From the NCBI GenBank assembly GCA_903879985.1, contig CAIRNR010000004.1, positions 96,762-160,761 on the forward strand: a DNA stretch of 64,000 nucleotides. The letters are read 5' to 3'. How positions within the stretch are numbered: the first letter of the stretch is position 1; each line of letters begins with the position of its first letter. Shown here one piece after another: positions 15,880 through 36,064 of the stretch. The DNA comes from an uncultured candidate division WWE3 bacterium. GTDB lineage: Bacteria; Patescibacteriota; WWE3; UBA101185; UBA10185. Made by a program: the position numbers and the translations under genes. The notes beneath the pieces were generated by a model. That model was not told the origin of the DNA. It did no database searches and saw only the letters and a list, made by a program, of their open reading frames with translations.

Positions 15880-15921
15880 TGGTGGGCCCAATAGGGGTCG
15901 AACCTATGACCTTTCGGATGT
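15880..15921 (-). pseudogene. 3' half of a tRNA-Val-like gene
   Basis: ACATCCGAAAGGTC-ATAGG-TTCGACC-CCTAT-TGGGCCC-ACCA; intact T arm and CCA. Confidence 0.65.
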
Positions 15922-15944
15922 GAGTCCATCGCCTCAATTAAATC

Positions 15945-16021
15945 TGGTGGGCGGTGCGGGGATCGAACCTGCGACCTTTCGGATGTAAACCGAATGCTCT
16001 AACCAGCTGAGCTAACCGCCC
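15945..16021 (-). tRNA. tRNA-Val(TAC)
   Basis: GGGCGGT/ACCGCCC acceptor; TTCGG-TTTACAT-CCGAA; CCA. Confidence 0.92.
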
Positions 16022-16031
16022 AGATTTAATT

Positions 16032-16064
16032 TAAACGAATGCTACCCAACTGAGCTAACTCCCC
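16032..16064 (-). pseudogene. 5' half of a tRNA-Val-like gene
   Basis: GGGGAGTTAGCTCAGTTGGGTAGCATTCGTTTA closely resembles the 5' half of the adjacent tRNA-Val. Confidence 0.6.
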
Positions 16065-18696: not shown

Positions 18697-18772
18697 TGGT
18701 GGGAAGAGTGGGAGTCGGACCCACATAGCCGGTTTTTCAGACCGGTGCCGTGACCACCTTGGCTATCTTCCC
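18697..18772 (-). tRNA. tRNA-Phe(GAA)
   Basis: GGGAAGA/TCTTCCC; CCGGT-CTGAAAA-ACCGG; T-loop TCCGACT; CCA. Confidence 0.88.
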
Positions 18773-18775
18773 TTA

Positions 18776-18850
<75 letters not shown>

Positions 18851-18861
18851 ACGAATGCAAT

Positions 18862-18895
18862 GAGTGCGAGTGCGCGACGAAGTCGCAACTCTCGC
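18862..18895 (-). repeat. tRNA-leader hairpin element, copy 1
   Basis: GCGAGAG-TTGCGACTTCGTCGCG-CACTCGC-ACTC; related copy at 31191..31225. Confidence 0.7.
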
Positions 18896-18976
18896 GAACT
18901 ACAAAAGCTTACACATTATATTGATACCAGCCCAAAAAGTCCAGAAGCCAGCCTAAGAGGTACGTACATAGCTATT

Positions 18977-20680
18977 TTACCAGCTTCCACCGCCTCCGCC
19001 ACCACCACCGCCGCCTGAGAAACCCCCACTAAAACCACTGCCAAATCCGGAACTTGATCTTGTCGCTGTAGCAGCTTGCACAGTGTCTCCCATGGAGTGT
19101 GTGAATGCTGTAATCAATAACAAATTCTCACCGTCATACCAATCGGCTTTATATGTGGAGATATCTTTAAATTTGCCCACCCAGATCTTTTCGCATCCAA
19201 AGGCTGTTGCGTAAGGTAGCAACTTTTCAAAAAACATTTGATTTTGAGCCTGAAAATCTAATTGCTCGGTTTGAGAGGCTAAAAAGTTTTTCAGAGATAC
19301 TGCTTCGGAATATTTTTCTATACCTAAATCTGTGCGTCTAGCTGATTTACGACCCCAAAATATCGACAATATTGTTAAAGGTATGTTTAGACCAAAGTAT
19401 AAGGATAATACGCTTAAAGTAGTAAAGAACGTATCAACTGTTGAAGGATTTTCCTTATAGAAGCCGCGTGTTTTTAAATCCTTCAGAACTTCTTTTTTAT
19501 ACGTAACAATGCTGTCCGAAAAAGCTGTGGGTTTTTTCAAACTGTTCATTGAAACTGTATCACTGCCAAATATGCCTGCAAAAAGTTTTACTTCTTTATC
19601 ACCAATGCTTTCTCCAATTTCCAAATCTTTTATTTTTGTAAGGCTAATATCGTCGGTTCCTTTTTGAGTTATTTTCAAATAGCCCTTTTGAGCAAGCCAA
19701 ATAATAAGTGCCACGACATCTCTGTTATCCATTGTAGAGTCTATCAGCGCCCCTACTTCTGCAGGATTAAGAGGAACACCTTTGGCGTCATTAGGTGGTT
19801 GAAACCATGCAGCAACTATTTTCTGCTTTTTCTTTATATTCATTTTTTCGCTGATTATGCGAAACAGAACAAATCCCGGAATAAGTAAATACCAGATGAT
19901 TGATCCGATGCTAAATATAATAGTTTGTACAATTGTAAATGCGACGCCAGTGAGATCGTTTGATGGAACTGGTTCTATAACGGCGACTAATCCTTTTGGA
20001 AATCCTGCTACTGTTGATAGTCCCTCACCAACTGAAAGATCCGTTGCGGAATAATCGTATGTTCCAAATGCATAGCTTGAGGTGCAATCTTTGGCTTTAC
20101 TTCCGACCACTCCTGTGTAACAGGTTGTATTTGTATTTTGAGAAGAAACTGATTTGGGTAGTACTACTTCTGACGTTGCATATAAAATTGGAACTGTCCA
20201 ACCATTTCCTGTGGTATTCCAATAAAGTTCATCGTGGTCACTGAAATAGGTAATTGCTCCTGAAACAGTGTAGTTAATTACGTATGTGTGTAAGCCGGTA
20301 ATAGTTGCATTCGGATCACCAACTTTTAGTGTTATCTGTCCCCCACTTTGCTCTGTTGTGTATTTATATGGACGGCCATAGGAATCCGTAATTGAAGTAA
20401 CATCTATAGTTAGTTTGTATTTTTTGCCGTCACTATTTTGTTTTACGTAAGAAATATATCTGTAGATACCGTGTTTTTGTAAATTACCAAAATCGTAATC
20501 AATTGTTTCTGTAACTGCTATTGTTCCATCTGAGTTTACTTTTACTTGGGAATCAAAAGATGAAATATTTTCCGCCGGAGGAGTAAGTACATGCTTAGTC
20601 GTTTGCGCATATACAACATGGGAAGTAATCAAGGTAAAAAAAACAATACCAACGCTAAATGCGAATATTTTTAATTTCAT
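18977..20680 (-). CDS. DUF2207 family membrane protein
   Basis: HGIYR, DELYWN..G..W, LPYA.AFG and Gly-rich GGGGGSW tail. Confidence 0.9.
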   Translation of the reverse strand: MKLKIFAFSVGIVFFTLITSHVVYAQTTKHVLTPPAENISSFDSQVKVNSDGTIAVTETIDYDFGNLQKHGIYRYISYVKQNSDGKKYKLTIDVTSITDSYGRPYKYTTEQSGGQITLKVGDPNATITGLHTYVINYTVSGAITYFSDHDELYWNTTGNGWTVPILYATSEVVLPKSVSSQNTNTTCYTGVVGSKAKDCTSSYAFGTYDYSATDLSVGEGLSTVAGFPKGLVAVIEPVPSNDLTGVAFTIVQTIIFSIGSIIWYLLIPGFVLFRIISEKMNIKKKQKIVAAWFQPPNDAKGVPLNPAEVGALIDSTMDNRDVVALIIWLAQKGYLKITQKGTDDISLTKIKDLEIGESIGDKEVKLFAGIFGSDTVSMNSLKKPTAFSDSIVTYKKEVLKDLKTRGFYKENPSTVDTFFTTLSVLSLYFGLNIPLTILSIFWGRKSARRTDLGIEKYSEAVSLKNFLASQTEQLDFQAQNQMFFEKLLPYATAFGCEKIWVGKFKDISTYKADWYDGENLLLITAFTHSMGDTVQAATATRSSSGFGSGFSGGFSGGGGGGGGGGSW

Positions 20681-20736
20681 TGTTAAATTATATATAAAGC
20701 CTGCGGAAAAAAAAGGGACAGTAATAGCTAAATTAC

Positions 20737-20949
20737 TTATTTCTTTTTCTTTTTTGCTTTATACGTGCTAATGCCTAACAACGAATACACGCCACAATAT
20801 CCCACTACACCAGTTATTAGTAACATAGTACCAAGAACAGCTGCTACTAACTGAACTGTGCCTGTTAAGAAGAACGCAGCTAAGAATAAACTCGTTACTC
20901 CTGCTGTGGTACGTATTCCTCTATCAAAATTACTTTCATTTACTTTCAT
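20737..20949 (-). CDS. DUF2892 (YgaP-like) small membrane protein
   Basis: N...DR..R and TG..GYC..Y..LG motifs. Confidence 0.85.
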   Translation of the reverse strand: MKVNESNFDRGIRTTAGVTSLFLAAFFLTGTVQLVAAVLGTMLLITGVVGYCGVYSLLGISTYKAKKKKK

Positions 20950-21058
20950 TGTATTTCCCCTTAAATATTTACTTAATTAATGATACACATTTTTGTTATA
21001 CTCTGTATATACTTTGAAAACATATCAATGAAAGACTACACACTAAGGAGAGTGCACC

Positions 21059-21553
21059 ATGTCTTTTTCAAACGATTCCGTAAATGCAATTTGGAAAAGG
21101 TCTGGAGGGCCATTGGCAAAATGTTTTACATGCGGAAGAAAATGTGCCGATGGTTGGAATCTAGATGCAAGTCACATGGATCACACGAAAAATCATGATT
21201 ACGATGATCCTACGCGAGGTCAACTTGAATGTCTTTGGTGCCATCTGACCAGACACGTTAGATATTATTATGAGTATTGTTTAAAGGAGGATAGTTCTAA
21301 GAAAAGGTTGAGAGAAAATCGTTATATGTGTCATGCATTGGTTATGCGTATTTTAGCAGGAGAAGATCGGCATGAGCGCGGACCAGTACCAAGAACACAT
21401 AAAGAAATTAAGACAACAAGGAAAGAGCTTGTGGTTTTGATTGAAGCAGAGTTTAAAAAAGCAAGAAAAGCCGCGAAAAAGAATAACTTTAAGGAAAAAC
21501 CACTTATAAAGGCGGAGGAGAAAATCTTAGAACTTTGCTACATGATCCGTTAG
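21059..21553 (+). CDS. Putative HNH-like zinc-binding nuclease
   Basis: CFTCG...LDASH.DH...LECLWCH...H; SD-led. Confidence 0.6.
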   Translation: MSFSNDSVNAIWKRSGGPLAKCFTCGRKCADGWNLDASHMDHTKNHDYDDPTRGQLECLWCHLTRHVRYYYEYCLKEDSSKKRLRENRYMCHALVMRILAGEDRHERGPVPRTHKEIKTTRKELVVLIEAEFKKARKAAKKNNFKEKPLIKAEEKILELCYMIR

Positions 21554-21588
21554 GTTAGTTTTAGTTTAGCAGGTAATAGCTTTTGGCT

Positions 21589-22929
21589 TTATCTGCTTTT
21601 TTTGTTTTCGTCTGCCACAAACTTTATGACCCGATGTAAAGCTTCAACCATTTTTTCTTTATTATTAGTAAATGTCAGCCTATACCAATTGCCACAATCT
21701 TTTGGCATATCAAAAGCTTCCCCTGGTGCCAAAACAACGCCTGTATTAAAAAACATTTTCTTAAAAAAATCGTATGTAGTACCTGTGTGGTCAATTTTTA
21801 AACCCATGTTTATTCCTGCATCAGGTACTATTGCTTTAATGTATGGGGAGGCCTTAAGTTCGCTTAAAACTAAGTCTCTATAATCAATATATTCTGAAAT
21901 TGTTTCTTTTACTTCTCTAGTGTATTGAGGAAGTTCCTTGGAATAGTTGCCTATAATTTCAAATTCACGTGAGTTTTCTTTTTTTCTAGAATCATCTATA
22001 TCGTAACCGCCTTTCATTAATGTTCTTAGCAAAATATCTTTAACTATAAAATTATCAAAAACTGTGGGCGGACACGTATATGATGTGTCTACAATCAAGT
22101 TTAGTTCGTTCATTAATGCTTCACTGCCAAGAACATATCCCATGCGTATTCCAGGGGCTGCACGATCCTTAGAAAATGCTTTAACTCGTATTATGTAGTC
22201 TTGGTTTTGGTTAACAGACCCAATATTTGGTACCGGTTTAAAACCCATGTCGTAAAATATTTCGTCAACAATTATGTAAATCTTTTTTTCGTTAGAAAGT
22301 GTAACGAGTCTTTCAAGTTCGGTTTCACTAAAGAATTTTCCAAATGGAAAGCTTGGGTTGGTTAAAATAATAAAACGAGTTTCAGAATCAATACTATTTT
22401 CAATGTCTTCTATTGTTGGCAAAAATCCTCGATCTTCTTTACCACAAACCTTTACGATTTTAAATTTCTTCCAAAGTACTCCTTCGTATACAGGGTATGC
22501 TGGTTGGACCAAAATGGCGTTGCCTTTGTATTTATAATGCTGAAGTAATACTTTTAGCGACATGGAAAAACCACCAGTAGAACTAAGCACCATAGCCACG
22601 TTATTTTCGGTAAACCGATTGATACCTTGAATATAGTTTTCGTATTTGGCTATAACATCCCGAACAAAAGGATTTCCTAGCTGGTGTGTGTAGCTGAAAT
22701 AAGATTTTTTAACTGATTCACTTAAAACTTCTGTTAAACATGTGGGAATTGGAAACTCATCGCGATCTACGTCACCTCCACCAAGATGCATGTAAAACCC
22801 AAGTTGTTTTTGAATTTTTCCGGAATAGTCTAACCAATCCCTAATATATTGGTGATAGTATCGAAAAGCGTAAGGTACACGATTATCTAAAATCGTCGGT
22901 GTATAAGAACCTTTAAGAGGTTTATTCAT
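21589..22929 (-). CDS. PLP-dependent enzyme, aminotransferase class I/II (fold type I)
   Basis: P.YP.Y, NPSFPFG, VDEIFY, FSKD..APGIRMGY (PLP Lys), PG.AF, RLTF. Confidence 0.88.
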   Translation of the reverse strand: MNKPLKGSYTPTILDNRVPYAFRYYHQYIRDWLDYSGKIQKQLGFYMHLGGGDVDRDEFPIPTCLTEVLSESVKKSYFSYTHQLGNPFVRDVIAKYENYIQGINRFTENNVAMVLSSTGGFSMSLKVLLQHYKYKGNAILVQPAYPVYEGVLWKKFKIVKVCGKEDRGFLPTIEDIENSIDSETRFIILTNPSFPFGKFFSETELERLVTLSNEKKIYIIVDEIFYDMGFKPVPNIGSVNQNQDYIIRVKAFSKDRAAPGIRMGYVLGSEALMNELNLIVDTSYTCPPTVFDNFIVKDILLRTLMKGGYDIDDSRKKENSREFEIIGNYSKELPQYTREVKETISEYIDYRDLVLSELKASPYIKAIVPDAGINMGLKIDHTGTTYDFFKKMFFNTGVVLAPGEAFDMPKDCGNWYRLTFTNNKEKMVEALHRVIKFVADENKKSR

Positions 22930-22938
22930 GTTTAATTT

Positions 22939-24042
22939 CTAGTTAATTTGATCAAAGACCAGAGATTTATCCAAGTTTTTAGGATCCCTAATAAACGCTA
23001 TGGCCTCAGTTGTGCTTAAAATAGGAATTAAATATTTTTCACGTTCATCTAGGGCAACTCGTGGACAAAGTGTTGAAACTAAAATATCAAAATCTGTGCT
23101 ATTAATCGAATCAGAGTTAAAGAAATCTACCAGCACTATATCTGTTATGTATCCGCCTTTTTCATATTCTTTTTGAAGCTTTAATAATGATTCCATGCGA
23201 GATTGCCCAAACTTATTGCTGATTATAAAACCAACCTTTTTAGCTTTTTTAAGCTGCTGTTTGAGCGCTGTTAGTTTTGTTCTGTGTAGCTTCAGAAGTT
23301 TTTTATACTCATAAATATTCGTATCTCCTGACACCGGATCAAAGCATATAACATCTTTATGGGTAGCTAAAGACACAGGTAAAGCGTGAAAACCTCCGCC
23401 TTCAAACATTACAAACACGTCTACTTTGTCCATAACTTTTGTGGCCGAAGATGGATTACATCCTAAAACTTGACCTGCAAATCCAACGCGATCAGTACCT
23501 TTACCAACGAAAACATTTATACCTGCTGCGGTTAAAGCTTTTTTAGCTATTGGAACATTTTTAATATATTGAACTGAGCTTATTAATCCAATGTTTTCAA
23601 TTTTATTTTTACTTAAGTAAGCCACAGCTTTTGTAATTTGATCGTCGATACCGATTTTCATGTATAAAGGTACATAAACAACTTTAAATTTCTTTGGGAG
23701 AATTCTATTACTAATAGCAACGTTTCCAAAGTGAATTATTTTATTAATGCCTAATGTCTCGAATTGATAGTACTTAATGTCGCAAGCACCAAAGCAAGTG
23801 TCACCGGATAATATTATCTTTGTATTAAGAGATTTTTCCAGGTATGCGATTAAATCGTGTGAAAACTTTTTTAATCCTTCAGGGATTTCTAAGCCTACTA
23901 ATGCATCTTTTACAGTACCAAGCTCGGTTTTAATTCTATCTATTTCTAGTTCGTATTTGTCTAGGAAATCCTCAAAACTCTCGTAGTCGGGATGTAAACG
24001 ATTAACAAAAGGCTTAGAAGTATGATGATAAGGCTCAATCAT
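22939..24042 (-). CDS. dph2: Dph2/Dph1-family radical-SAM 3-amino-3-carboxypropyl transferase homolog
   Basis: IPEGL, GDTCFGACDI, IHFG, GQVLGCN, GGFH, K.GQ, LCPRVALD, PILS..E. Confidence 0.88.
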   Translation of the reverse strand: MIEPYHHTSKPFVNRLHPDYESFEDFLDKYELEIDRIKTELGTVKDALVGLEIPEGLKKFSHDLIAYLEKSLNTKIILSGDTCFGACDIKYYQFETLGINKIIHFGNVAISNRILPKKFKVVYVPLYMKIGIDDQITKAVAYLSKNKIENIGLISSVQYIKNVPIAKKALTAAGINVFVGKGTDRVGFAGQVLGCNPSSATKVMDKVDVFVMFEGGGFHALPVSLATHKDVICFDPVSGDTNIYEYKKLLKLHRTKLTALKQQLKKAKKVGFIISNKFGQSRMESLLKLQKEYEKGGYITDIVLVDFFNSDSINSTDFDILVSTLCPRVALDEREKYLIPILSTTEAIAFIRDPKNLDKSLVFDQIN

Positions 24043-24072
24043 TGGGTGTATTCTAGCACAAGATGTAAAGAG

Positions 24073-25089
24073 TTACTTAATGTTGTACCAACCGTCTGGA
24101 AACAACGAGTTTGAAACAGCCTCTCCGTATTCTCCTGTTTTACAATGGTTAATAGGTTGAAGCTTTATTTTTTGCCAACTTTGCACGCCTTGTAGAAATT
24201 CGCTTCCATCATTACTAACATTGGATATCTGCCATGGAAAGTTTCCTGTTCCGTCGTCTATTTTTATATTAACCTTATCAGCGCCATACTGTGTCCATGT
24301 AAGGAGCATTCCCGCTTTTCCTTCTTTTTGTGAGGATTGAAGTTTAATCCATGTTGGCGAATATGGCTTTTTCCAAAGGCAACGTGTATCTTTTTTAAAG
24401 GTTTTAACGTTTGCACTTGCACGTGATTCGGTCACTTCTCCCCAATATAAGCTTTGTGGATTGTTGAATTCTCCTTCTGAATTATTTAAGCCATTTAAAA
24501 TTGATGCGGTGTAGTTACCCGTGCCATCAGTTATGCCTACAGTTACTGGTTGAGAAAATTGATCGGGGTTATCGCCGTAGTTTAGTTGAAAATTTCCATT
24601 TGGATATAAAACTAATTCTGAGTTTACGCGTATAGAACTACCTAAAAAAGTATTTTCCCAACGTACAACAAATCTAGAAGAATTTGAATCAATATAAATG
24701 TCATCATTTGGGAAATCACCATTATATGTATCCATGTCAGCGTCGTTAACTAAGATTCTTTTAATTCCATCTGTATTATCCGTTATATCCATCTCATAGT
24801 TATCCATATTATCGTCATATCCTTCATCAGGTTGATCGCTAAAGGCAACGGATGAGTTTGATGTTACCCATATCTTATTGTAAGTTTTGCCATAAAAGGT
24901 AAATGGAAACGGAAGTGTGTATTCAAAAAATTCATCGTCTTCATGAAAATTTTGTGCTGTTCCCCCGGTAATAAATGATTGAGGTATTTGGTGTTCTACT
25001 GTGGTCTCATCGGCAGCATAGGCTAAAGGGCTAAGCGTGAAAACTGAAATTAGAGCTATGCTTAAAACGGCAGCAACTTTAATCTTCAT
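24073..25089 (-). CDS. Secreted NIDO-like domain protein with C-terminal 'TFKKDTRCL' FN3-like domain
   Basis: Signal peptide from ATG 25089; LPFPFTFYGKTY..IWV.SN; LYPNG.F...YG. Confidence 0.8.
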   Translation of the reverse strand: MKIKVAAVLSIALISVFTLSPLAYAADETTVEHQIPQSFITGGTAQNFHEDDEFFEYTLPFPFTFYGKTYNKIWVTSNSSVAFSDQPDEGYDDNMDNYEMDITDNTDGIKRILVNDADMDTYNGDFPNDDIYIDSNSSRFVVRWENTFLGSSIRVNSELVLYPNGNFQLNYGDNPDQFSQPVTVGITDGTGNYTASILNGLNNSEGEFNNPQSLYWGEVTESRASANVKTFKKDTRCLWKKPYSPTWIKLQSSQKEGKAGMLLTWTQYGADKVNIKIDDGTGNFPWQISNVSNDGSEFLQGVQSWQKIKLQPINHCKTGEYGEAVSNSLFPDGWYNIK

Positions 25090-25151
25090 AGCATAATAAT
25101 GATAAAGTTTTGCTGAGAAGTCAACATGATAGATGATGCTATAATTCAATT

Positions 25152-25718
25152 ATGACAAACCAAATAGGAAAACAAATAGCAAACGCAAATTTTGAGATTT
25201 ATTTCGAGGACAAATTCTCTAAAGTTAAGTTCACAGACTACATAGGAAAATGGTTAGTTCTTCTTTTTTATCCCGCTGATTTTACATTTGTATGCCCTAC
25301 TGAACTCAGTGAAGCGGCTTCCTTTTACGAACAGTTTAAAAACTTAAATGCTGAAATAATTAGCGTTTCCACCGACACTGTTTATAGTCATAAAGCCTGG
25401 CATGATTCATCTAAGGTTATAGCAACAATTTCCTATCCAATGGCAGCAGATAAAACCGGAGAACTTTGCAAAATGTTTGGTACCTATATCGAGGAAGAAG
25501 GTTTATCTTTACGCGGAACATTTATAATTGATCCGGACGGAAAATTAATTTCAAGTGATATTCACAGTAACGATATTGGCAGAAGCACCGAAGAAATATT
25601 ACGAAAATTACAAGCAGCAATTTATGTTAGAGAAAATCATGGTGAAGTTTGTCCTGCTTCATGGAAACCTGGTAAAGCTACACTAAAGCCAGGTGTGGAT
25701 TTAGTTGGAAAGATCTAA
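25152..25718 (+). CDS. ahpC: 2-Cys peroxiredoxin
   Basis: FYPADFTFVCPTE and GEVCPASW. Confidence 0.95.
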   Translation: MTNQIGKQIANANFEIYFEDKFSKVKFTDYIGKWLVLLFYPADFTFVCPTELSEAASFYEQFKNLNAEIISVSTDTVYSHKAWHDSSKVIATISYPMAADKTGELCKMFGTYIEEEGLSLRGTFIIDPDGKLISSDIHSNDIGRSTEEILRKLQAAIYVRENHGEVCPASWKPGKATLKPGVDLVGKI

Positions 25719-28409
25719 GTTATACCAGCCGTTAGGATATAAATCCAAAGAAAATGGATTGCCATAGTCACCTGACTTACAATGATTGATTGGTTTTATC
25801 ATAATTTTCTGCCAGCTTTGTACATTTGGCAAAAAAATATGGCCGTCATTAGCTGTGTCTGAAATTTTCCATGGATAGTTTCCTGTGCCGTCGTCTATTT
25901 TTATATCCATTTTATCTGCACCAAATTGAACCCAAGTTAAATTCATTCCTTGTATCCCGTTATTAGTAGCCGATGTAGCAGATATCCATGTGGTTGCTTC
26001 AGGTTTTTTCCATAAACATCTAGTATCTTTCTTAAATGTTATTGAATTTTGAGACTGAATGTTTGAATCATCTGGAGCTATTTCAATTGTATAAATGATT
26101 CCGCGGTTAGTTTCGCCTCCTTGACTGGTCATACCATATAATTTGTTGTTATAAAATTTTACAGATCCGTAAGGAAAAGCGCCTTCCACAGTACTACGCA
26201 CAAAATCATGTAATAGTTTAAAGTTTGTTCCATCAGTTTTGATCGAATAGATTACTCCAGCAGAACTACTACCTCCAAATACCGTAGTCCCATATATTGT
26301 ATCGCCCTCAATATAGAGTGGTCCAAACCAAGGAGTATTTCCATTATTAAGATCAGATGAAAAATCATGCAAATCCTTAAAGTTATTTCCATCAGTATCT
26401 ACAGAATATAGCGAACCTCCGGCTAACGCACCATCGTTAGAAGTAGTGCCATAAAGAGTATTACCTACAATTGCTAAAGCAGCTTGGGGACCGGTACCAT
26501 AACTAATGTTATTAAAATCGTGCACTATTTCAAAATCAGTTCCATCAGGATTTATAGAATATACTACACCTAAGCCTAATTCTCCGCCTCTTGCCGCAAC
26601 CCCAAATAATTTTCCTTGATACTCAACCAAACCACCAACCGGGTTATATCCATCTGCAGCATTATTATTTGCAAATGAATAAACTACCTCAAAGTTCAAT
26701 CCATTGGGATCAAAACGATACAATGTACCAACATCGTTAGCACCGCCAGAATAAGTAGTTCCATATAATTTATTGCTATAAAAAATTATGCTACCAAAAG
26801 GTTGTGCGCCATCTCCGACAAACGCACTAAATGAATGCAGAACTGCAAAGTTATTTCCGTCAATATCAACAGAAAAAATCGTACCATAAGGATTCACGCC
26901 ATCCATGTTATTTACACCATATATTTTCCCATTGTAAATTAGTGGATTTCCTTGTGGCATATCACCTTCACTAGCATCTATCATACTGTGAATCGCGCTT
27001 ACATGATTATTTGAAGGATCAAATGAAAATATTGCTCCCACATAATTAGTGCCGCCATATTCTGAAAAACCATATAAAATTCCACCTGATTCAGTAAGGG
27101 TACTTGTAGGATTAAAGCCATACTGAGACTCATCAGTAGCAAATGAATGAACCACGTTGTAGGTATAAGGGTAAGTTGTTACATTCACAGTATTTCCCGC
27201 TGAAACATCTTGATCTGTTAAAACATCGACTTGAACTCTATAGTTAACGCCGTTTATAAATGTTTCGACTACATGACAAGAAAATGTATAAGGATCAGAC
27301 CCTTCAAAAGTACATGAACCCATATTTGGTAAAACGTAATAAGAACTTGTATCCAAGTTATAAACAGAATATTTTACAGAGGTTACGTTACCTGCATTGT
27401 TATATCCGCTAATTGTTCCAACAATAGTGGGGTGTGTTTCTTGTGAAAGATCTGAATTGTGAACATTACTAACATCTATGTATGGTTGACCGGAATTTGT
27501 TCCATAATATCTTGCTACAAAATCAAGTTGATTGCCTTTTAATTCAGCTTTTGGAATTTTTACCTCGCAGGTTTGGTGTTTATAGCTAACTTTACTAGTA
27601 ATTCCAAAGGCGCATTTTCCATACGTATCAGTGTAGTCATCAATTCTATATTCTTTTTGTAATTCTGCTGTAGCCGGGTTTTGTGCAATAACTTTTAGCC
27701 AGTCAGAACCGTATTCGTTTGTATTATCACCTGTAATATCAAAGGCCATGTAAACATAATCAGAATCGTCTTTCATGTAAATATAAGTTTTAGCCGATGG
27801 ATGCCCTGTGGTTGAATAAAACATTGGTGAATAGTCGGCATCAACTTTTCCGTCAACCTCCGTAAGTAGTCCATCAACATTTAGCGATCCGTTATTTTTA
27901 AATGTGTACGATTGATAAGGTGTTCCCCAATCAGGAAATCTAAACGCATTTATTTCATACGATTCATATTGGTTTGCCTTTAGTGTTAAAACTGATTTAC
28001 CTTTACAAACACTCGGGATATTCCAAAGTAGTTCCACCGGCATATCATGATTAATAATAACGTTTTGGTCATCGGCACTGATATCGGCTAAAACGCTTTC
28101 GCCTGATTGTACATATTTTGCATACTCAGGTGTGATTGTTTTACCGCAAGCATCCAATTTTATTAAATCTATATCAGCGTAAGTTGTGTTCTCTTGGACA
28201 ATTTGAATTTTAACTTGTCCGTTTTTTGGTGTTACAACAAAGGTTTTTGTTTGATACGTGATTGTAAAAGGCTCCTTATAAATATCTGTCCATTTGCCGT
28301 CGGTTTCTTGTGAAATATTAAAAGTACCTTGTGCTGCTTTGACAGCGGGAAAAGAAAACAAAGCCATGATAAAAACTAATGCCAATGAAGCTCTCAGATA
28401 TTTAAGCAT
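25701..28409 (-). CDS. Large secreted protein with GloVer (Gloeo_Verruco)-type propeller repeats and C-terminal 'TFKKDTRCL' domain
   Basis: Signal peptide; repeated LYG.T..GG....G.IYSI..DG..F..LH.F units. Confidence 0.85.
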   Translation of the reverse strand: MLKYLRASLALVFIMALFSFPAVKAAQGTFNISQETDGKWTDIYKEPFTITYQTKTFVVTPKNGQVKIQIVQENTTYADIDLIKLDACGKTITPEYAKYVQSGESVLADISADDQNVIINHDMPVELLWNIPSVCKGKSVLTLKANQYESYEINAFRFPDWGTPYQSYTFKNNGSLNVDGLLTEVDGKVDADYSPMFYSTTGHPSAKTYIYMKDDSDYVYMAFDITGDNTNEYGSDWLKVIAQNPATAELQKEYRIDDYTDTYGKCAFGITSKVSYKHQTCEVKIPKAELKGNQLDFVARYYGTNSGQPYIDVSNVHNSDLSQETHPTIVGTISGYNNAGNVTSVKYSVYNLDTSSYYVLPNMGSCTFEGSDPYTFSCHVVETFINGVNYRVQVDVLTDQDVSAGNTVNVTTYPYTYNVVHSFATDESQYGFNPTSTLTESGGILYGFSEYGGTNYVGAIFSFDPSNNHVSAIHSMIDASEGDMPQGNPLIYNGKIYGVNNMDGVNPYGTIFSVDIDGNNFAVLHSFSAFVGDGAQPFGSIIFYSNKLYGTTYSGGANDVGTLYRFDPNGLNFEVVYSFANNNAADGYNPVGGLVEYQGKLFGVAARGGELGLGVVYSINPDGTDFEIVHDFNNISYGTGPQAALAIVGNTLYGTTSNDGALAGGSLYSVDTDGNNFKDLHDFSSDLNNGNTPWFGPLYIEGDTIYGTTVFGGSSSAGVIYSIKTDGTNFKLLHDFVRSTVEGAFPYGSVKFYNNKLYGMTSQGGETNRGIIYTIEIAPDDSNIQSQNSITFKKDTRCLWKKPEATTWISATSATNNGIQGMNLTWVQFGADKMDIKIDDGTGNYPWKISDTANDGHIFLPNVQSWQKIMIKPINHCKSGDYGNPFSLDLYPNGWYNLDLSN

Positions 28410-28452
28410 TAAGTAAATGATAGTTAATATGTGCGTATGTGTAAATGAAGAT

Positions 28453-29859
28453 TTATCGCTTTAGCTCAAGCTCACTAATCTTCTTAATAGAATCAACAAA
28501 TTCGCCTAAGTGACTTACTAAAATCACAGGACCTGCAAAGTTGTTTATGGTTTTAGCAATAACAGGGATATGTCTAAAGTTAATATGGTTAGTTGGCTCA
28601 TCTAAAATCAATAACCCTGGTTGTTGCAAAACAAATCGCGCGTAACAAAGTAATCCTTTTTGACCTTCGGATAATGTACCAATTTTGTTATTTAACATTG
28701 CGCCGTTTAATAAAAAAGCTGCAGCCGTGGCGTAAATTTTCTGACCTATTTTTTCTTGGGCTACAGAATACAACGAATCATAGCAGGTTTGATCAAAATC
28801 TAACTCTGAAAAATCCTGACTGTAATACCCTACTCTTATTTTTGGATTGATATCTGCAGCATCTCCGGTTAGCATCGCTTTTAACAAGGTGCTTTTTCCA
28901 ATTCCGTTTGGGCCTTTTATTAAAAGTCGTTCACCCTTAATAAGTTCACGTTCGATTGGGCGTTTGATTTTTATAACGTATCCTACAAATTCCTGAGATG
29001 GAATTGTAAAATCAGGAATAGTCTTATCTTCTTGGCGCATAACCACTAGTTCTTCACGGTCTTCGGCAATGTCTTCTCTAATTCTTCGAGCAAGGTGACT
29101 CATGGCAATACTTTTTCCACCAAGCCTGTTAACTTTTTCAAATCGTTCTTTAATACTTCGCTCAAGACGTGAGTTTAAAAATTGGTCCCTTTCTAGCTTT
29201 GCGGCAATTTCTTCCAAAACGTCAAAATAGTTACCGTCAAATTGTTCAACCTTTTTGGTATGACTATCAAGATTTAAAACACCCTCAGTAAAACTGTTTA
29301 AAAAGTCCGCGTCGTGCGAAATAACAATACAAGTTTTTTGATAGTTCATTAAAAAGTTTGTGATGTGCTCAATACCGTCTTTATCCAAGTTGTTTGTAGG
29401 TTCATCTAGTAGCAAAATGTCGGGTTTTGAAAAAATAGCGTACGCAAGCAAAAGTCGAGCTTTTTCGCCGCCAGAAAAGTGTCGCACCTTTTTGTCCATT
29501 GGCGCGTTAAAATTTACTGCGTTTAATACCTTAACAATTTCGCCTTCAATTCCAGCTTGTATGTCGGTAACTGCTGTTTTAAAAAAATCTACAACGCTGA
29601 GGTCAAGTCTTTCCTCAGGGATCATTTGTTCAGCAATTCCTACTGTAGCCGAGTCAGAAATGCTTATTTTGCCACTTGTAGGTTTAAGTTTGCCTAATAA
29701 CAACTTAAAAATTGTGCTTTTTCCTGCACCATTCTGCCCAATAATGGTTACAATCGAGTTTTTACGTACAGTTAAACTAGCCTCGTCTAAAAGAAGCTTT
29801 GTTTCGGAATATCCGAAGGAAACCTGATTAAATCTGATTATTACGTTATCTTCGTTCAT
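28453..29859 (-). CDS. ABC-F family ATPase
   Basis: Two NBDs (GQNGAGKS, GPNGIGKS; LDEPTN twice) and no TM segments. Confidence 0.9.
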   Translation of the reverse strand: MNEDNVIIRFNQVSFGYSETKLLLDEASLTVRKNSIVTIIGQNGAGKSTIFKLLLGKLKPTSGKISISDSATVGIAEQMIPEERLDLSVVDFFKTAVTDIQAGIEGEIVKVLNAVNFNAPMDKKVRHFSGGEKARLLLAYAIFSKPDILLLDEPTNNLDKDGIEHITNFLMNYQKTCIVISHDADFLNSFTEGVLNLDSHTKKVEQFDGNYFDVLEEIAAKLERDQFLNSRLERSIKERFEKVNRLGGKSIAMSHLARRIREDIAEDREELVVMRQEDKTIPDFTIPSQEFVGYVIKIKRPIERELIKGERLLIKGPNGIGKSTLLKAMLTGDAADINPKIRVGYYSQDFSELDFDQTCYDSLYSVAQEKIGQKIYATAAAFLLNGAMLNNKIGTLSEGQKGLLCYARFVLQQPGLLILDEPTNHINFRHIPVIAKTINNFAGPVILVSHLGEFVDSIKKISELELKR

Positions 29860-29947
29860 AGCAAGTAGCTATTGTACCAAATCTATGGGTTATTGGATAT
29901 TAAAAAGCGATAAATTAGGTTAAAGGTTTCGTATAAGCTTAGTTGCC

Positions 29948-30418
29948 TTATTCAGTGTAACGCAACAAAAAATCCGAATATTCCCTTAACTTAGAAGAAA
30001 GTACACTCTTATCTTGAGTTTTTAAGTAATCAAACAACATGGAGTATGTATCGTCTCTGTCTTTTTTAAGCGCCAACCATTCTTTTCTAAATTCAGGATC
30101 CTCATGCATATAGTTGCGAGCTAAAACGGTCATTTCGTTATCGTGATCGAATGAATCATACACACCATCAATCTCCCTGTTCAAAAATTCTGCCAAGAAG
30201 ATTACTTCACCTATTTCAGGAACTGAGGGATTCTGAGTTTCCTTAAGTTTAGTAATTTTTATTTCTAATCTTTCCAATAACGTGTGAAGATAGCCTTTAC
30301 TATCTACAATTCTAGATTTAACTAATTCAAGAGTTTTACCTTGAAGGTCTTCTTTAGAATAATTTTGCGTAGTTAAATCGTAAGCTTTTTTTTGGAATTC
30401 ATTTAATGTATTTTGCAT
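29948..30418 (-). CDS. Hypothetical helical protein
   Basis: Open frame; start uncertain. Confidence 0.6.
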   Translation of the reverse strand: MQNTLNEFQKKAYDLTTQNYSKEDLQGKTLELVKSRIVDSKGYLHTLLERLEIKITKLKETQNPSVPEIGEVIFLAEFLNREIDGVYDSFDHDNEMTVLARNYMHEDPEFRKEWLALKKDRDDTYSMLFDYLKTQDKSVLSSKLREYSDFLLRYTE

Positions 30419-30504
30419 GACTAAATAGTACGCGTTGCAGTTTCGCTGGTCCATAATTAATTTGATGGCCTATTAACGATCTAATGAGAATTTCGGGTAG
30501 TACT

Positions 30505-30870
30505 TCATCTTATAATCTGATGCTCAAACCATTGTTCTTGGAAATGAGTTGCTTTTTCTATTTCAGCGTCTGTAAGCTCAATGTTTTCTGGGACAACTAC
30601 CAGTTTGTCGTCATCATCTTTAAGTCTATGCACTATAGCTATAACTTTTCCTTTGGCCGTTTCTACGGGTTCATTAATACCTAGGAAATATGCGTCCAAA
30701 TCTTCCCCATCAGGTGCTTTAACGTCCTTTATATATCCATAATTTGCTTCATATTTGAACCCATGCTTTGGATGTAATGAACCCAATTGGCGGTCTATTG
30801 TAAGTTCAACCTCTTTACCTAGATATACCTCGGCTAATTTTAGGGATTCAGATTTTTGGATTTCATTCAT
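30505..30870 (-). CDS. Short inorganic pyrophosphatase (family I)
   Basis: NYGY, DGEDLD, DDKLV. Confidence 0.85.
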   Translation of the reverse strand: MNEIQKSESLKLAEVYLGKEVELTIDRQLGSLHPKHGFKYEANYGYIKDVKAPDGEDLDAYFLGINEPVETAKGKVIAIVHRLKDDDDKLVVVPENIELTDAEIEKATHFQEQWFEHQIIR

Positions 30871-30946
30871 AGTTGTATCTTATCAGAAAAGAGTCACTCC
30901 TACTTTGTTTAAGTGAAGAAATGTTGGTTTGTCATTGTTAAAACTA

Positions 30947-31032
30947 TGGTGGGCGAGACAGGACTTGAACCTGCACGGGTTTTACCCCATAACGACCTCA
31001 ACGTTACGCGTATGCCATTCCGCCACTCGCCC
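30947..31032 (-). tRNA. tRNA-Leu(GAG)
   Basis: GGGCGAG/CTCGCCC; TAACG-TTGAGGT-CGTTA; long variable arm; CCA. Confidence 0.93.
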
Positions 31033-31094
31033 ACGAACACTAGCGATTATATACAAAATTAGGCTAAATGACGAGCCTAAGTTTAACTTTAGTT

Positions 31095-31180
31095 TGGTGC
31101 CAGAGGTGGGACTTGAACCCACATATCCTTGCGGATACAGCCTTCTGAAGACTGCGTGTCTGCCATTTCACCACTCTGGC
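31095..31180 (-). tRNA. tRNA-Leu(CAG)
   Basis: GCCAGAG/CTCTGGC; CAGTC-TTCAGAA-GGCTG; long variable arm; CCA. Confidence 0.93.
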
Positions 31181-31190
31181 GCGAGTATTC

Positions 31191-31225
31191 GAGTGCCAGT
31201 GCGCGGACAAGGTCGCAACGCTGGC
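31191..31225 (-). repeat. tRNA-leader hairpin element, copy 2
   Basis: GCCAGCG-TTGCGACCTTGTCCGCG-CACTGGC-ACTC; related to 18862..18895. Confidence 0.7.
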
Positions 31226-31459
31226 TAAAAACTTAGGCTGACCATAAAAAAATCTTAAGATCAGCCCTTACCAAAATAATGTCATCGTCTCCCCGTTTTT
31301 TTACCTCGAGTATTTCCACTTCTGATTACTGCCGAATGTTCTATCTTTGAATTTCTGTAAACCAATTTCTGACGAACGCCTATGGTTTTACTTGCAGCAG
31401 CTTGATCACATTGTGGCAATTTAGTCGACATAAACTCTCCTTTGATAGATTTTCGTACA

Positions 31460-35899: not shown

Positions 35900-36064
35900 T
35901 CTGGTGCGCCTGGAGGGAATCGGTCACCGGTTCTCGCTTGCTAGCTCGTCCGTCGACCCCGCCTCAGTCGCCTTCGCTCCTTGCGGCTTTCTCATCCCCT
36001 GGCGAAGACAGCTAGCTACCACCTTCGGTGATATCTACCTGTCTGGTGCGCCTGGAGGGAATCG
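35900..36064. mobile_element. att-like 23-bp duplication of the tRNA-Arg 3' end enclosing a palindromic ~120-bp insert
   Basis: tctggtgcgcctggagggaatcg at 35900-35922 and 36042-36064. Confidence 0.65.

Follow-up and report, generated by a model that had tools for sequence, protein, structure and literature searches.

Putative miniature inserts with target-matched arms at the edges of tRNA genes in a candidate division WWE3 genome

We analysed a 64,000-nt stretch of DNA from an uncultured candidate division WWE3 bacterium (assembly GCA_903879985.1, contig CAIRNR010000004.1, positions 96,762 to 160,761 of the forward strand; the whole stretch is hereafter the window), in which two similar hairpin units stand directly before the genes for tRNA-Gly(GCC) and tRNA-Leu(CAG). 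These units and their relatives are best read, with a probability of about 0.55, as non-autonomous miniature DNA inserts that occupy the outer edges of conserved genes, mostly after nucleotides 7–9 of a tRNA gene. The layout is a copy of the target, a hairpin, an imperfect inverted copy and a tail, followed by the target itself, and the arms change with the host gene. The units are patchily distributed, occur in tandem stacks and have cores that are common to different tRNAs and genomes. An earlier note on this DNA had described a leader hairpin that mimics the acceptor stem of whichever tRNA it precedes, and had proposed either a processing switch or decoy, or a tRNA-targeting miniature element carrying a copy of its target. 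The latter proposal fits most of the evidence, but a mobilising enzyme was not found. The parts of the two window units are as follows.

18851–18895, minus strand: whole 45-nt unit, the leader of tRNA-Gly(GCC), ending directly at the tRNA
18888–18895, minus strand: direct copy of the first 8 nt of tRNA-Gly(GCC), starting 19 nt past the −10 hexamer
18874–18886, minus strand: inner hairpin of the Gly unit, 5 bp with a 3-nt loop that reads GAA on the plus strand
18866–18872, minus strand: inverted copy of tRNA nt 1–7 in the Gly unit, with a mismatch at pair 6
18851–18865, minus strand: tail of the Gly unit, judged by eye to form, on the plus strand, a hairpin with a GCA triloop and tandem G.A pairs
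31181–31225, minus strand: whole 45-nt unit before tRNA-Leu(CAG)
31219–31225, 31203–31216, 31195–31201 and 31181–31194, minus strand: direct copy, inner hairpin, inverted copy and tail of the Leu unit

The order of parts in a unit is a direct copy of the tRNA start (its first 5–8 nt), two unpaired nucleotides, a 5-bp hairpin, one unpaired nucleotide, the imperfect inverted copy, a short tail and the tRNA. The inverted copy thus lies between two direct copies, either of which can be its pairing partner; in the Gly unit, these partners are the upstream copy and the 5' strand of the tRNA itself. The upstream copy at 18888–18895 is probably the displaced original 5' end of tRNA-Gly(GCC). The 34–35-nt elements noticed at first (18862–18895 and 31191–31225) do lie on the minus strand, 11 nt (Gly) and 10 nt (Leu) before their tRNAs, and 29 of 35 positions are identical in a global alignment, as claimed. 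That extent covers the hairpin element but not the full 45-nt unit, which reaches the tRNA. The change from G-C to C-G at pair 3 of the outer stem is also present. The likeness of the Leu 5' arm to the acceptor strand holds for 5 nt and breaks at position 6, which differs.

Both window elements fold as hairpins (RNA z −2.9 and −2.5). In nine units aligned without the tail, 90.7% of the cells in a helix of 7 + 5 pairs were paired, compared with 33–49% in slid controls. Both stems covary, with 6 of the 12 pairs changed on both sides and a score reached by none of 500 shuffles, a result that is overstated because the structure was derived from the same, related sequences on which covariation was tested. 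Pairs 2 and 6 are most often unpaired, with mismatches at each in 8 of 30 units. The pair-6 mismatch is common to the Gly and Leu units, suggesting that the arms stem from common descent and not from fresh copying for each tRNA. No Rfam family matched the units, even at E values up to 10. An assembly artefact was rejected, since contigs of two sequencing runs from separate studies (X1 and X3) cross both window units with no differences.

Throughout the genome (1.01 Mb in 8 contigs, 97.8% complete), at least 23 of 34 identities with the element were found at only three places, namely, the two window copies and a site before tRNA-Thr(TGT) with 27 identities; three 2-mer shuffles of the 715-kb contig gave maxima of 22–25. 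The Thr-TGT copy has an inner hairpin letter-identical to that of the Gly unit, and each of the three units starts exactly 45 nt before its tRNA. The arm of the Thr-TGT unit reads as the start of tRNA-Thr, which extends the tracking of the arms to a third tRNA. More generally, 8 of the 46 tRNAs have at least six of their own first bases within 120 nt upstream, while 2000 shuffled pairings averaged 1.2 and never exceeded 7. Before Pro-TGG, Pro-CGG and Thr-CGT, the layout recurs with a longer core, and Thr-CGT and Thr-TGT each carry two units in tandem. The short core occurs in this genome only before tRNAs starting GC(C/G)A(G/A)AGT, all four of which carry some unit; the wording 'whichever tRNA' thus claims too much for this core.

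To compare orthologous sites, we sampled the 30 best loci for each of three tRNAs among 86 genomes of the family, and a further 30 tRNA loci from each of five near-complete genomes; pooled with this genome and previously collected loci, these gave 452 distinct tRNA flanks. Outside this genome, a copy of the tRNA's own prefix (7–17 nt) was present at 10 of 31 Gly-GCC loci (two more, degenerate-looking by eye, were scored empty), 2 of 34 Leu-CAG loci and 6 of 18 Thr-TGT loci, the last six all in one genus. In six broadly sampled genomes, such a copy was found at 12 of 208 tRNAs, compared with a shuffled mean of 1.1. Filled (G113) and empty (G110) Gly-GCC sites exist within one genus, and the empty ones often follow the same glycine-rich gene end, as read from the sequence. 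The distance from the −10 hexamer to the first copy at filled sites had a median of 12 nt (8 of 12 sites with a hexamer), and that from the hexamer to the tRNA at empty sites a median of 11 nt (15 of 20 with a hexamer, six of one genus). This agreement in promoter spacing indicates that the first copy stands where the tRNA starts at empty sites.

The units before tRNA 5' ends are 33–90 nt long, and their inner hairpins vary from genome to genome. They are short, patchy imperfect palindromes that lack open reading frames and cluster. In one genus, Thr-TGT is preceded by tandem stacks of one to three units, some letter-identical and some mosaic. The tail, defined without reference to the tRNA, occurred together with an own-prefix copy in 16 of 20 flanks, compared with 29 of 432, although these rows are not independent. 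In many units, the inverted copy and the next two bases equal the tRNA 3' strand, the discriminator and C74. In several relatives, unit stacks also precede a second tRNA-Met gene.

Next to these letter comparisons, a covariance model (R1) was built from 13 units. It gave 5 matches in this genome and 37 matches (E up to 0.05) in 24 of the 134 genomes of the class, many of them training units or their tandem neighbours; 36 lie at tRNA 5' ends (12 of these sites were read directly and the rest placed by coordinates). New hosts were Met-CAT (with three different acceptor stems), Gly-CCC and Thr-CGT, in addition to further Val-CAC and Thr-TGT loci. At the loci outside the training set, the tRNA's own 7-mer was found upstream in 10 of 11 cases (one identical to a training unit), and the inverted copy of these 10 units agreed at 6–7 of 7 positions in all. 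In an earlier set, the own 7-mer outscored the average of the others in 10 of 13 classes. The claim that the stems track the neighbouring acceptor stem therefore holds, since new hosts (Met, Gly-CCC and Thr-CGT) have arms that match their own tRNA. Had copies lain at random loci without stem correlation, or had no further copies existed, the earlier note would have counted itself wrong; the R1 scan showed the opposite on each point.

The single R1 match away from a tRNA start lies in this genome's 16S–23S spacer (C7:528768-528814; L558 4769-4815), 113 nt before the 23S match. This spacer is about 3.5 kb long, with tRNA-Ile on the opposite strand, and the unit-like hairpin is directly followed by a boxA-like word. 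Outside the class, R1 had no match in a 150-genome sample of the phylum, with filters that lose weak matches. The exact 18-nt core gave 38 loci in the species collection, an uninformative yield near chance level and none with a tRNA, and the 16-nt core pattern gave 3 matches outside this genome among the 134 class genomes, none at a tRNA. The core varies too much for exact patterns to capture it.

The longer core takes the layout beyond tRNA genes. It occurred 18 times in 13 of the 134 genomes, at tRNA 5' ends, reversed at Ala 3' ends, between the genes for L16 and L29, and between those for L5 and S14. In the L16/L29 and L5/S14 intervals, the sequence that runs to the start codon likewise has a repeat and an inverted copy. 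The pattern matched at least 118 metagenome loci, or gave at least 136 matches with two viral scans added; of these, 31 rows were retained for their flank letters or because a tRNA was close by, and they sit at the ends of tRNAs or at gene boundaries, one before nusA. The viral contigs gave 14 and 2 pattern matches, none with tRNA or family flanks. The longer core was not found outside the class in 401 genomes of the phylum, the filters again losing weak matches.

Finally, the strand on which the loops appear well formed was considered. To pair on the transcribed strand, the tail must accommodate two pyrimidine mismatches. On the other strand, it forms tandem G.A pairs around a purine-N-A triloop in 15 of 20 tails. 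Counting triloops on perfect stems of at least 4 pairs, with 45 all-N artefacts dropped, we found TN(C/T) versus (G/A)NA at 11:2 of 21 in 5' units and 3:14 of 28 in 3' units (Fisher p 6e-4). The triloop letters thus flip with the side of the gene, such that the GNA strand reads away from the tRNA on both sides. Mini-hairpins with GNA loops are generally regarded as DNA-specific. GCGNAGC mini-hairpins with a sheared G-A pair form an unusually stable DNA motif, according to the available text of PMC13037366.

These features suggest how a miniature insert might behave. It may enter as, or be recognized as, folded single-stranded DNA of the strand reading away from the gene. Insertion would leave the old 5' end upstream and restore an intact gene, and the excised unit would be a dumbbell in which the copy is paired to the inverted copy and two mini-hairpin loops form the caps. 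Retargeting could proceed stepwise between tRNAs with similar starts, the inverted copy adjusting afterwards. Within a pre-tRNA leader, the insert would be tolerated because its copy and inverted copy, pairing with each other first as transcription proceeds, are mutually hidden, and because RNase P would remove the leader. Tentatively, and with considerably less confidence than in miniature inserts as such, the units could be taken as a new class of enzyme-mobilized DNA element of about 45 nt, a single-stranded dumbbell whose target-sequence stem serves as a reprogrammable guide, which inserts after nucleotides 7–9 of tRNA genes as well as at the starts of other genes and restores the gene in doing so, and whose two competing pre-tRNA folds can alter RNase P processing.

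A number of observations weigh against reading the units as miniature inserts. Arm tracking falls short of perfect: among the 10 held-out units, 6 had an own 7-mer that strictly outscored 11 other 7-mers, and in the earlier set it was strictly best in 20 of 38 units. The rows are related and the loci enriched for three tRNA types, so that p values overstate the case. Whole-unit energies favour no strand (RNA antisense better in 15 and sense in 25; DNA 22 versus 16 of 40), and neither do mismatch types. The Leu tail has a plain 3-bp fold available, and for the Gly tail (18851–18865) the nearest-neighbour model gives no fold on either strand. Selection on RNA could explain why the 7-bp plus 5-bp geometry is constant, and the longer core also lies behind tRNAs in the opposite polarity. 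In contigs from four of five listed sequencing runs, no joint was seen in which a unit is skipped; as rare variants are lost from contigs, this result has no bearing on the absence of empty alleles.

The search for an enzyme adds to these points. This genome has no match to the Y1 transposase (PF01797), and its two GIY-YIG matches (neither at a tRNA), four tyrosine-recombinase matches and three serine-recombinase matches offered no evident partner. None of 25 Y1 loci, taken from 46 listed matches, carried tail or longer-core motifs, and no nuclease-like open reading frame was seen by eye alongside the 31 kept longer-core rows. The small GIY-YIG gene of this genome is flanked by no unit-type repeats. 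Among relatives, 13 of the 51 GIY-YIG loci viewed stand at tRNA or tmRNA genes, most of these cassettes having a different hairpin and longer tRNA fragments, and most of the top 30 GIY-YIG loci belong to a class that is not at tRNAs. Two of the 13 tRNA-side loci adjoin tandem-GA-type elements; only at L185 does a small GIY-YIG gene adjoin a 3'-type element that carries tandem-GA hairpins, with Ser-GCT on its other side, and at L092 both hairpin kinds are nested at Gly-GCC. As a separate observation, small GIY-YIG genes in relatives (L092, L194-L200, L185, L167 and L187) lie between a tRNA 5' fragment and the intact tRNA, or behind tRNA or tmRNA genes. A tyrosine-recombinase gene in this genome (C7:350068-350556) lies about 0.9 kb from two tRNA-Met genes.

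An alternative, which we consider unlikely, is that the units are functional RNA leaders, in which a pre-tRNA hairpin sets RNase P processing through an acceptor-strand swap, as a folding guide or as a decoy. The arrangement of genes and signals at the two window loci bears on it.

18776–18850, minus strand: tRNA-Gly(GCC)
18697–18772, minus strand: tRNA-Phe(GAA), 3 nt past tRNA-Gly(GCC)
18915–18943, minus strand: sigma-70-like promoter (10/12), just past the end of a DUF2207 gene at 18977–20680
31095–31180, minus strand: tRNA-Leu(CAG)
30947–31032, minus strand: tRNA-Leu(GAG)
31046–31080, minus strand: terminator-like hairpin overlapping a promoter-like site for tRNA-Leu(GAG)

The −10 hexamer reported at 18915–18920 upstream of the Gly copy is present, within the sigma-70-like site, and the Gly unit sits between this promoter and the tRNA, as a leader would. 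Directly in front of the Leu unit, no promoter-like site was seen, nor at a strong hairpin (31236–31266, minus strand) 10 nt upstream of it. Each unit had been said to precede the first gene of a tRNA pair; the Gly/Phe pair is seen, but the Leu case is weak, as the terminator-like hairpin and the promoter-like site of Leu-GAG mean that the two Leu genes need not form one transcript.

A swap of strands between leader and tRNA, also proposed in the earlier note, is predicted for the Gly and Thr units (P about 0.98–0.99), the swapped fold lying 3–4 kcal/mol below the native fold, but not for the Leu unit (0.03; native 0.96). In a total of 37 units, 21 were predicted swapped and 14 native. The leader hairpin, at about −16 kcal/mol, could form during transcription before the tRNA exists. 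The energy model ignores tRNA tertiary contacts, and any direct-inverted-direct layout is expected to give a predicted swap, such that the 21/14 split would follow from the layout alone. The conserved geometry with covariation would fit selection on RNA, and an RNase P RNA-like gene is present in the genome, below the Rfam cut-off. In a synthetic riboswitch, RNase P can be controlled by leader pairing (PMC7897497).

Set against this, the units are absent from most orthologous tRNAs and vary within a genus, where a conserved cis-regulatory leader would be expected to be retained (10/31, 2/34 and 6/18 loci). Related cores stand before protein genes and, reversed, behind tRNAs, and the tail pairs on the transcribed strand only as pyrimidine mismatches. 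Taken together, the mostly empty orthologous sites, the freely replaced inner hairpin, the related core before protein genes, the R1 match in the rRNA spacer, and the DNA-type loops on the opposite strand speak against a conserved processing switch or decoy, and make such a switch unlikely. The description as minihelix-like stands in part: the helix of about 12 bp is of the acceptor-plus-T-stem type, but a 3-nt loop replaces the T loop, and ACTC or GCTC follows the helix in place of a 3' RCCA.

Slightly less likely still, in our view, is an origin without any dedicated enzyme, in which a direct-inverted-direct triplication arises by template switching in replication and is amplified by slippage, and loop cassettes spread through gene conversion among tRNA starts that look alike. 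Adjacent units can be identical, the tRNAs hosting the short core begin almost identically, Ala-GGC is preceded by a plain 31-bp duplication with a hairpin, and no partner gene was found beside the 31 kept longer-core rows or in the 25 Y1 flanks, all as this origin would have it. Template switching can also create reverse-complement arms and compensatory changes, according to the available text of a preprint (bioRxiv 10.1101/2021.04.15.439925). It yields perfect inverted copies, however, whereas the units show repeated mismatches at pairs 2 and 6 (8 of 30 at each), with the same mismatch letter in the Gly, Leu and Thr units. The same cores and tails, moreover, appear at unrelated targets, including AT-rich starts of ribosomal-protein genes, which offer little homology for conversion.

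It is very improbable that the units are collapsed pseudo-tRNAs, that is, upstream copies of tandem-duplicated tRNAs that lost their body and had their acceptor strands joined by a hairpin: the match of the inverted copy and two further bases to the tRNA 3' strand, discriminator and C74 in many units and the split tRNA halves around tRNA-Val(TAC) in the window agree with this origin, but the internal hairpins are common to different tRNAs and genomes and not derived per tRNA, and the layout also at non-tRNA targets, as in the protein-gene cases, weakens it further.

Other arrangements around tRNA genes were seen in this genome. A mirror layout occurs after tRNA 3' ends. For 8 of the 46 tRNAs, the 3' end recurs, as an exact copy of 19 or 21 nt, behind a folded insert, in seven cases not more than 160 nt away and in one case 4.3 kb away; this distant copy lies at the far end of a Pro-TGG island that carries a large serine recombinase. 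The window holds one element of this mirror type.

35902–36043, minus strand: mirror-type element behind tRNA-Arg(TCG), with an inverted T-arm copy, hairpins and a 3'-end copy

In this Arg-TCG element, the inverted T-arm copy is imperfect (about 35989–36003) and the tRNA 3'-end copy is an exact 21 nt (35902–35922); close relatives lie behind Leu-TAA and Ser-CGA and at the Pro-TGG island. The Ala-CGC 3' element contains the longer core in reverse. Only inside the Pro-TGG island does a serine recombinase accompany such copies, and the 5' units have no integrase gene between their copies. The recombinase (L044 348-2021, minus strand, on C6 of this genome) has 557 aa, its last codons being the antisense strand of tRNA-Pro(TGG), and at the other end of the island a 67-aa frame crosses the tRNA 3' copy.

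Around tRNA-Val(TAC) (15880–16064, minus strand), a diverged Val 5' half (about 16028–16064) and 3' half (about 15880–15921) flank the gene as if it were nested in an older copy. At Ala-GGC (C7:555556-555642), a 31-bp direct duplication (18 nt of leader and 13 nt of tRNA-Ala(GGC)) surrounds a hairpin. Two tRNA-Glu genes (C7:24486 and C7:284597) have a common leader of about 45 nt without a copy of the tRNA start, and tRNA-Ala(TGC) (C7:528612) and tRNA-Val(CAC) (C7:101746) have a related hairpin in their 3' trailers.

If the units are mobile, they would be among the smallest insertion elements with target-matched arms, and they would imply a recombination or nicking activity in streamlined genomes that might be reprogrammable by a 7-base change. 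If they arose without an enzyme, they would instead show template switching and conversion remodelling the edges of essential genes in these bacteria. The units place a competing acceptor strand in essential pre-tRNAs, and the filled and empty alleles, with or without a predicted swap, form a natural series for RNase P facing self-complementary leaders.

Several known systems resemble the units in part. Like minihelices and t-elements, they place a 7-bp plus 5-bp coaxial hairpin, which can pair with the tRNA, in the pre-tRNA leader; unlike minihelices, they have a 3-nt loop and no 3' RCCA, and are patchy at orthologous sites. The tRNA-linked repeats of E. coli (rtT/TLR) adjoin tRNA genes, contain a tRNA piece and lie 3' of the gene; the units share the tRNA piece but lie 5', with no Rfam match. 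Integron attC sites and IS200/IS605 elements use folded single-strand substrates with fixed unpaired positions, variable terminal loops, strand polarity and guide pairing. The arms of attC sites do not copy a host gene, whereas those of the units do.

Integrases leave attL/attR duplications of tRNA ends. The units are similar in that an intact tRNA is accompanied by a displaced end fragment at the original position, in line with the promoter spacing, and the 19- and 21-nt 3' copies described here fit att duplication, one of them closing the Pro-TGG serine-recombinase island. The 5' units differ from att duplications in that they copy 7–9 nt of the 5' end, contain no gene and have an added inverted copy.

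Ssn nucleases act with NTS/SRM repeats, which are imperfect, directional DNA hairpins of 20–50 nt, according to PMC11893778, whose main text nowhere contains 'tRNA'. Small single-domain GIY-YIG genes do ride tRNA genes in relatives (the 13 of 51 loci viewed). The degenerate SRM pattern had one match in this genome, not at a unit, and one in the 452 tRNA flanks. The REP, BIME and REPIN repeats associated with RAYT (Y1 HUH) are short, patchy, clustered imperfect palindromes without open reading frames that are thought to be mobilized in trans via single-stranded hairpins (PMC3733652, available text). The units share this form and clustering. The arms of REP sequences, however, are constant and end in a GTAG or CGTC tag, whereas the outer arms of the units are the first bases of the host gene, with the target duplicated; and while REP and REPIN sequences are associated with RAYT/Y1, the units occur in a genome without Y1, and their motifs are absent from all 25 Y1 flanks. 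Our literature searches, which covered few subscription journals, turned up no account of hairpin units at tRNA 5' ends whose arms match their target. In conclusion, the units resemble REP- or SRM-type hairpin repeats crossed with tRNA att duplication, but depart from each of these three in defining features.

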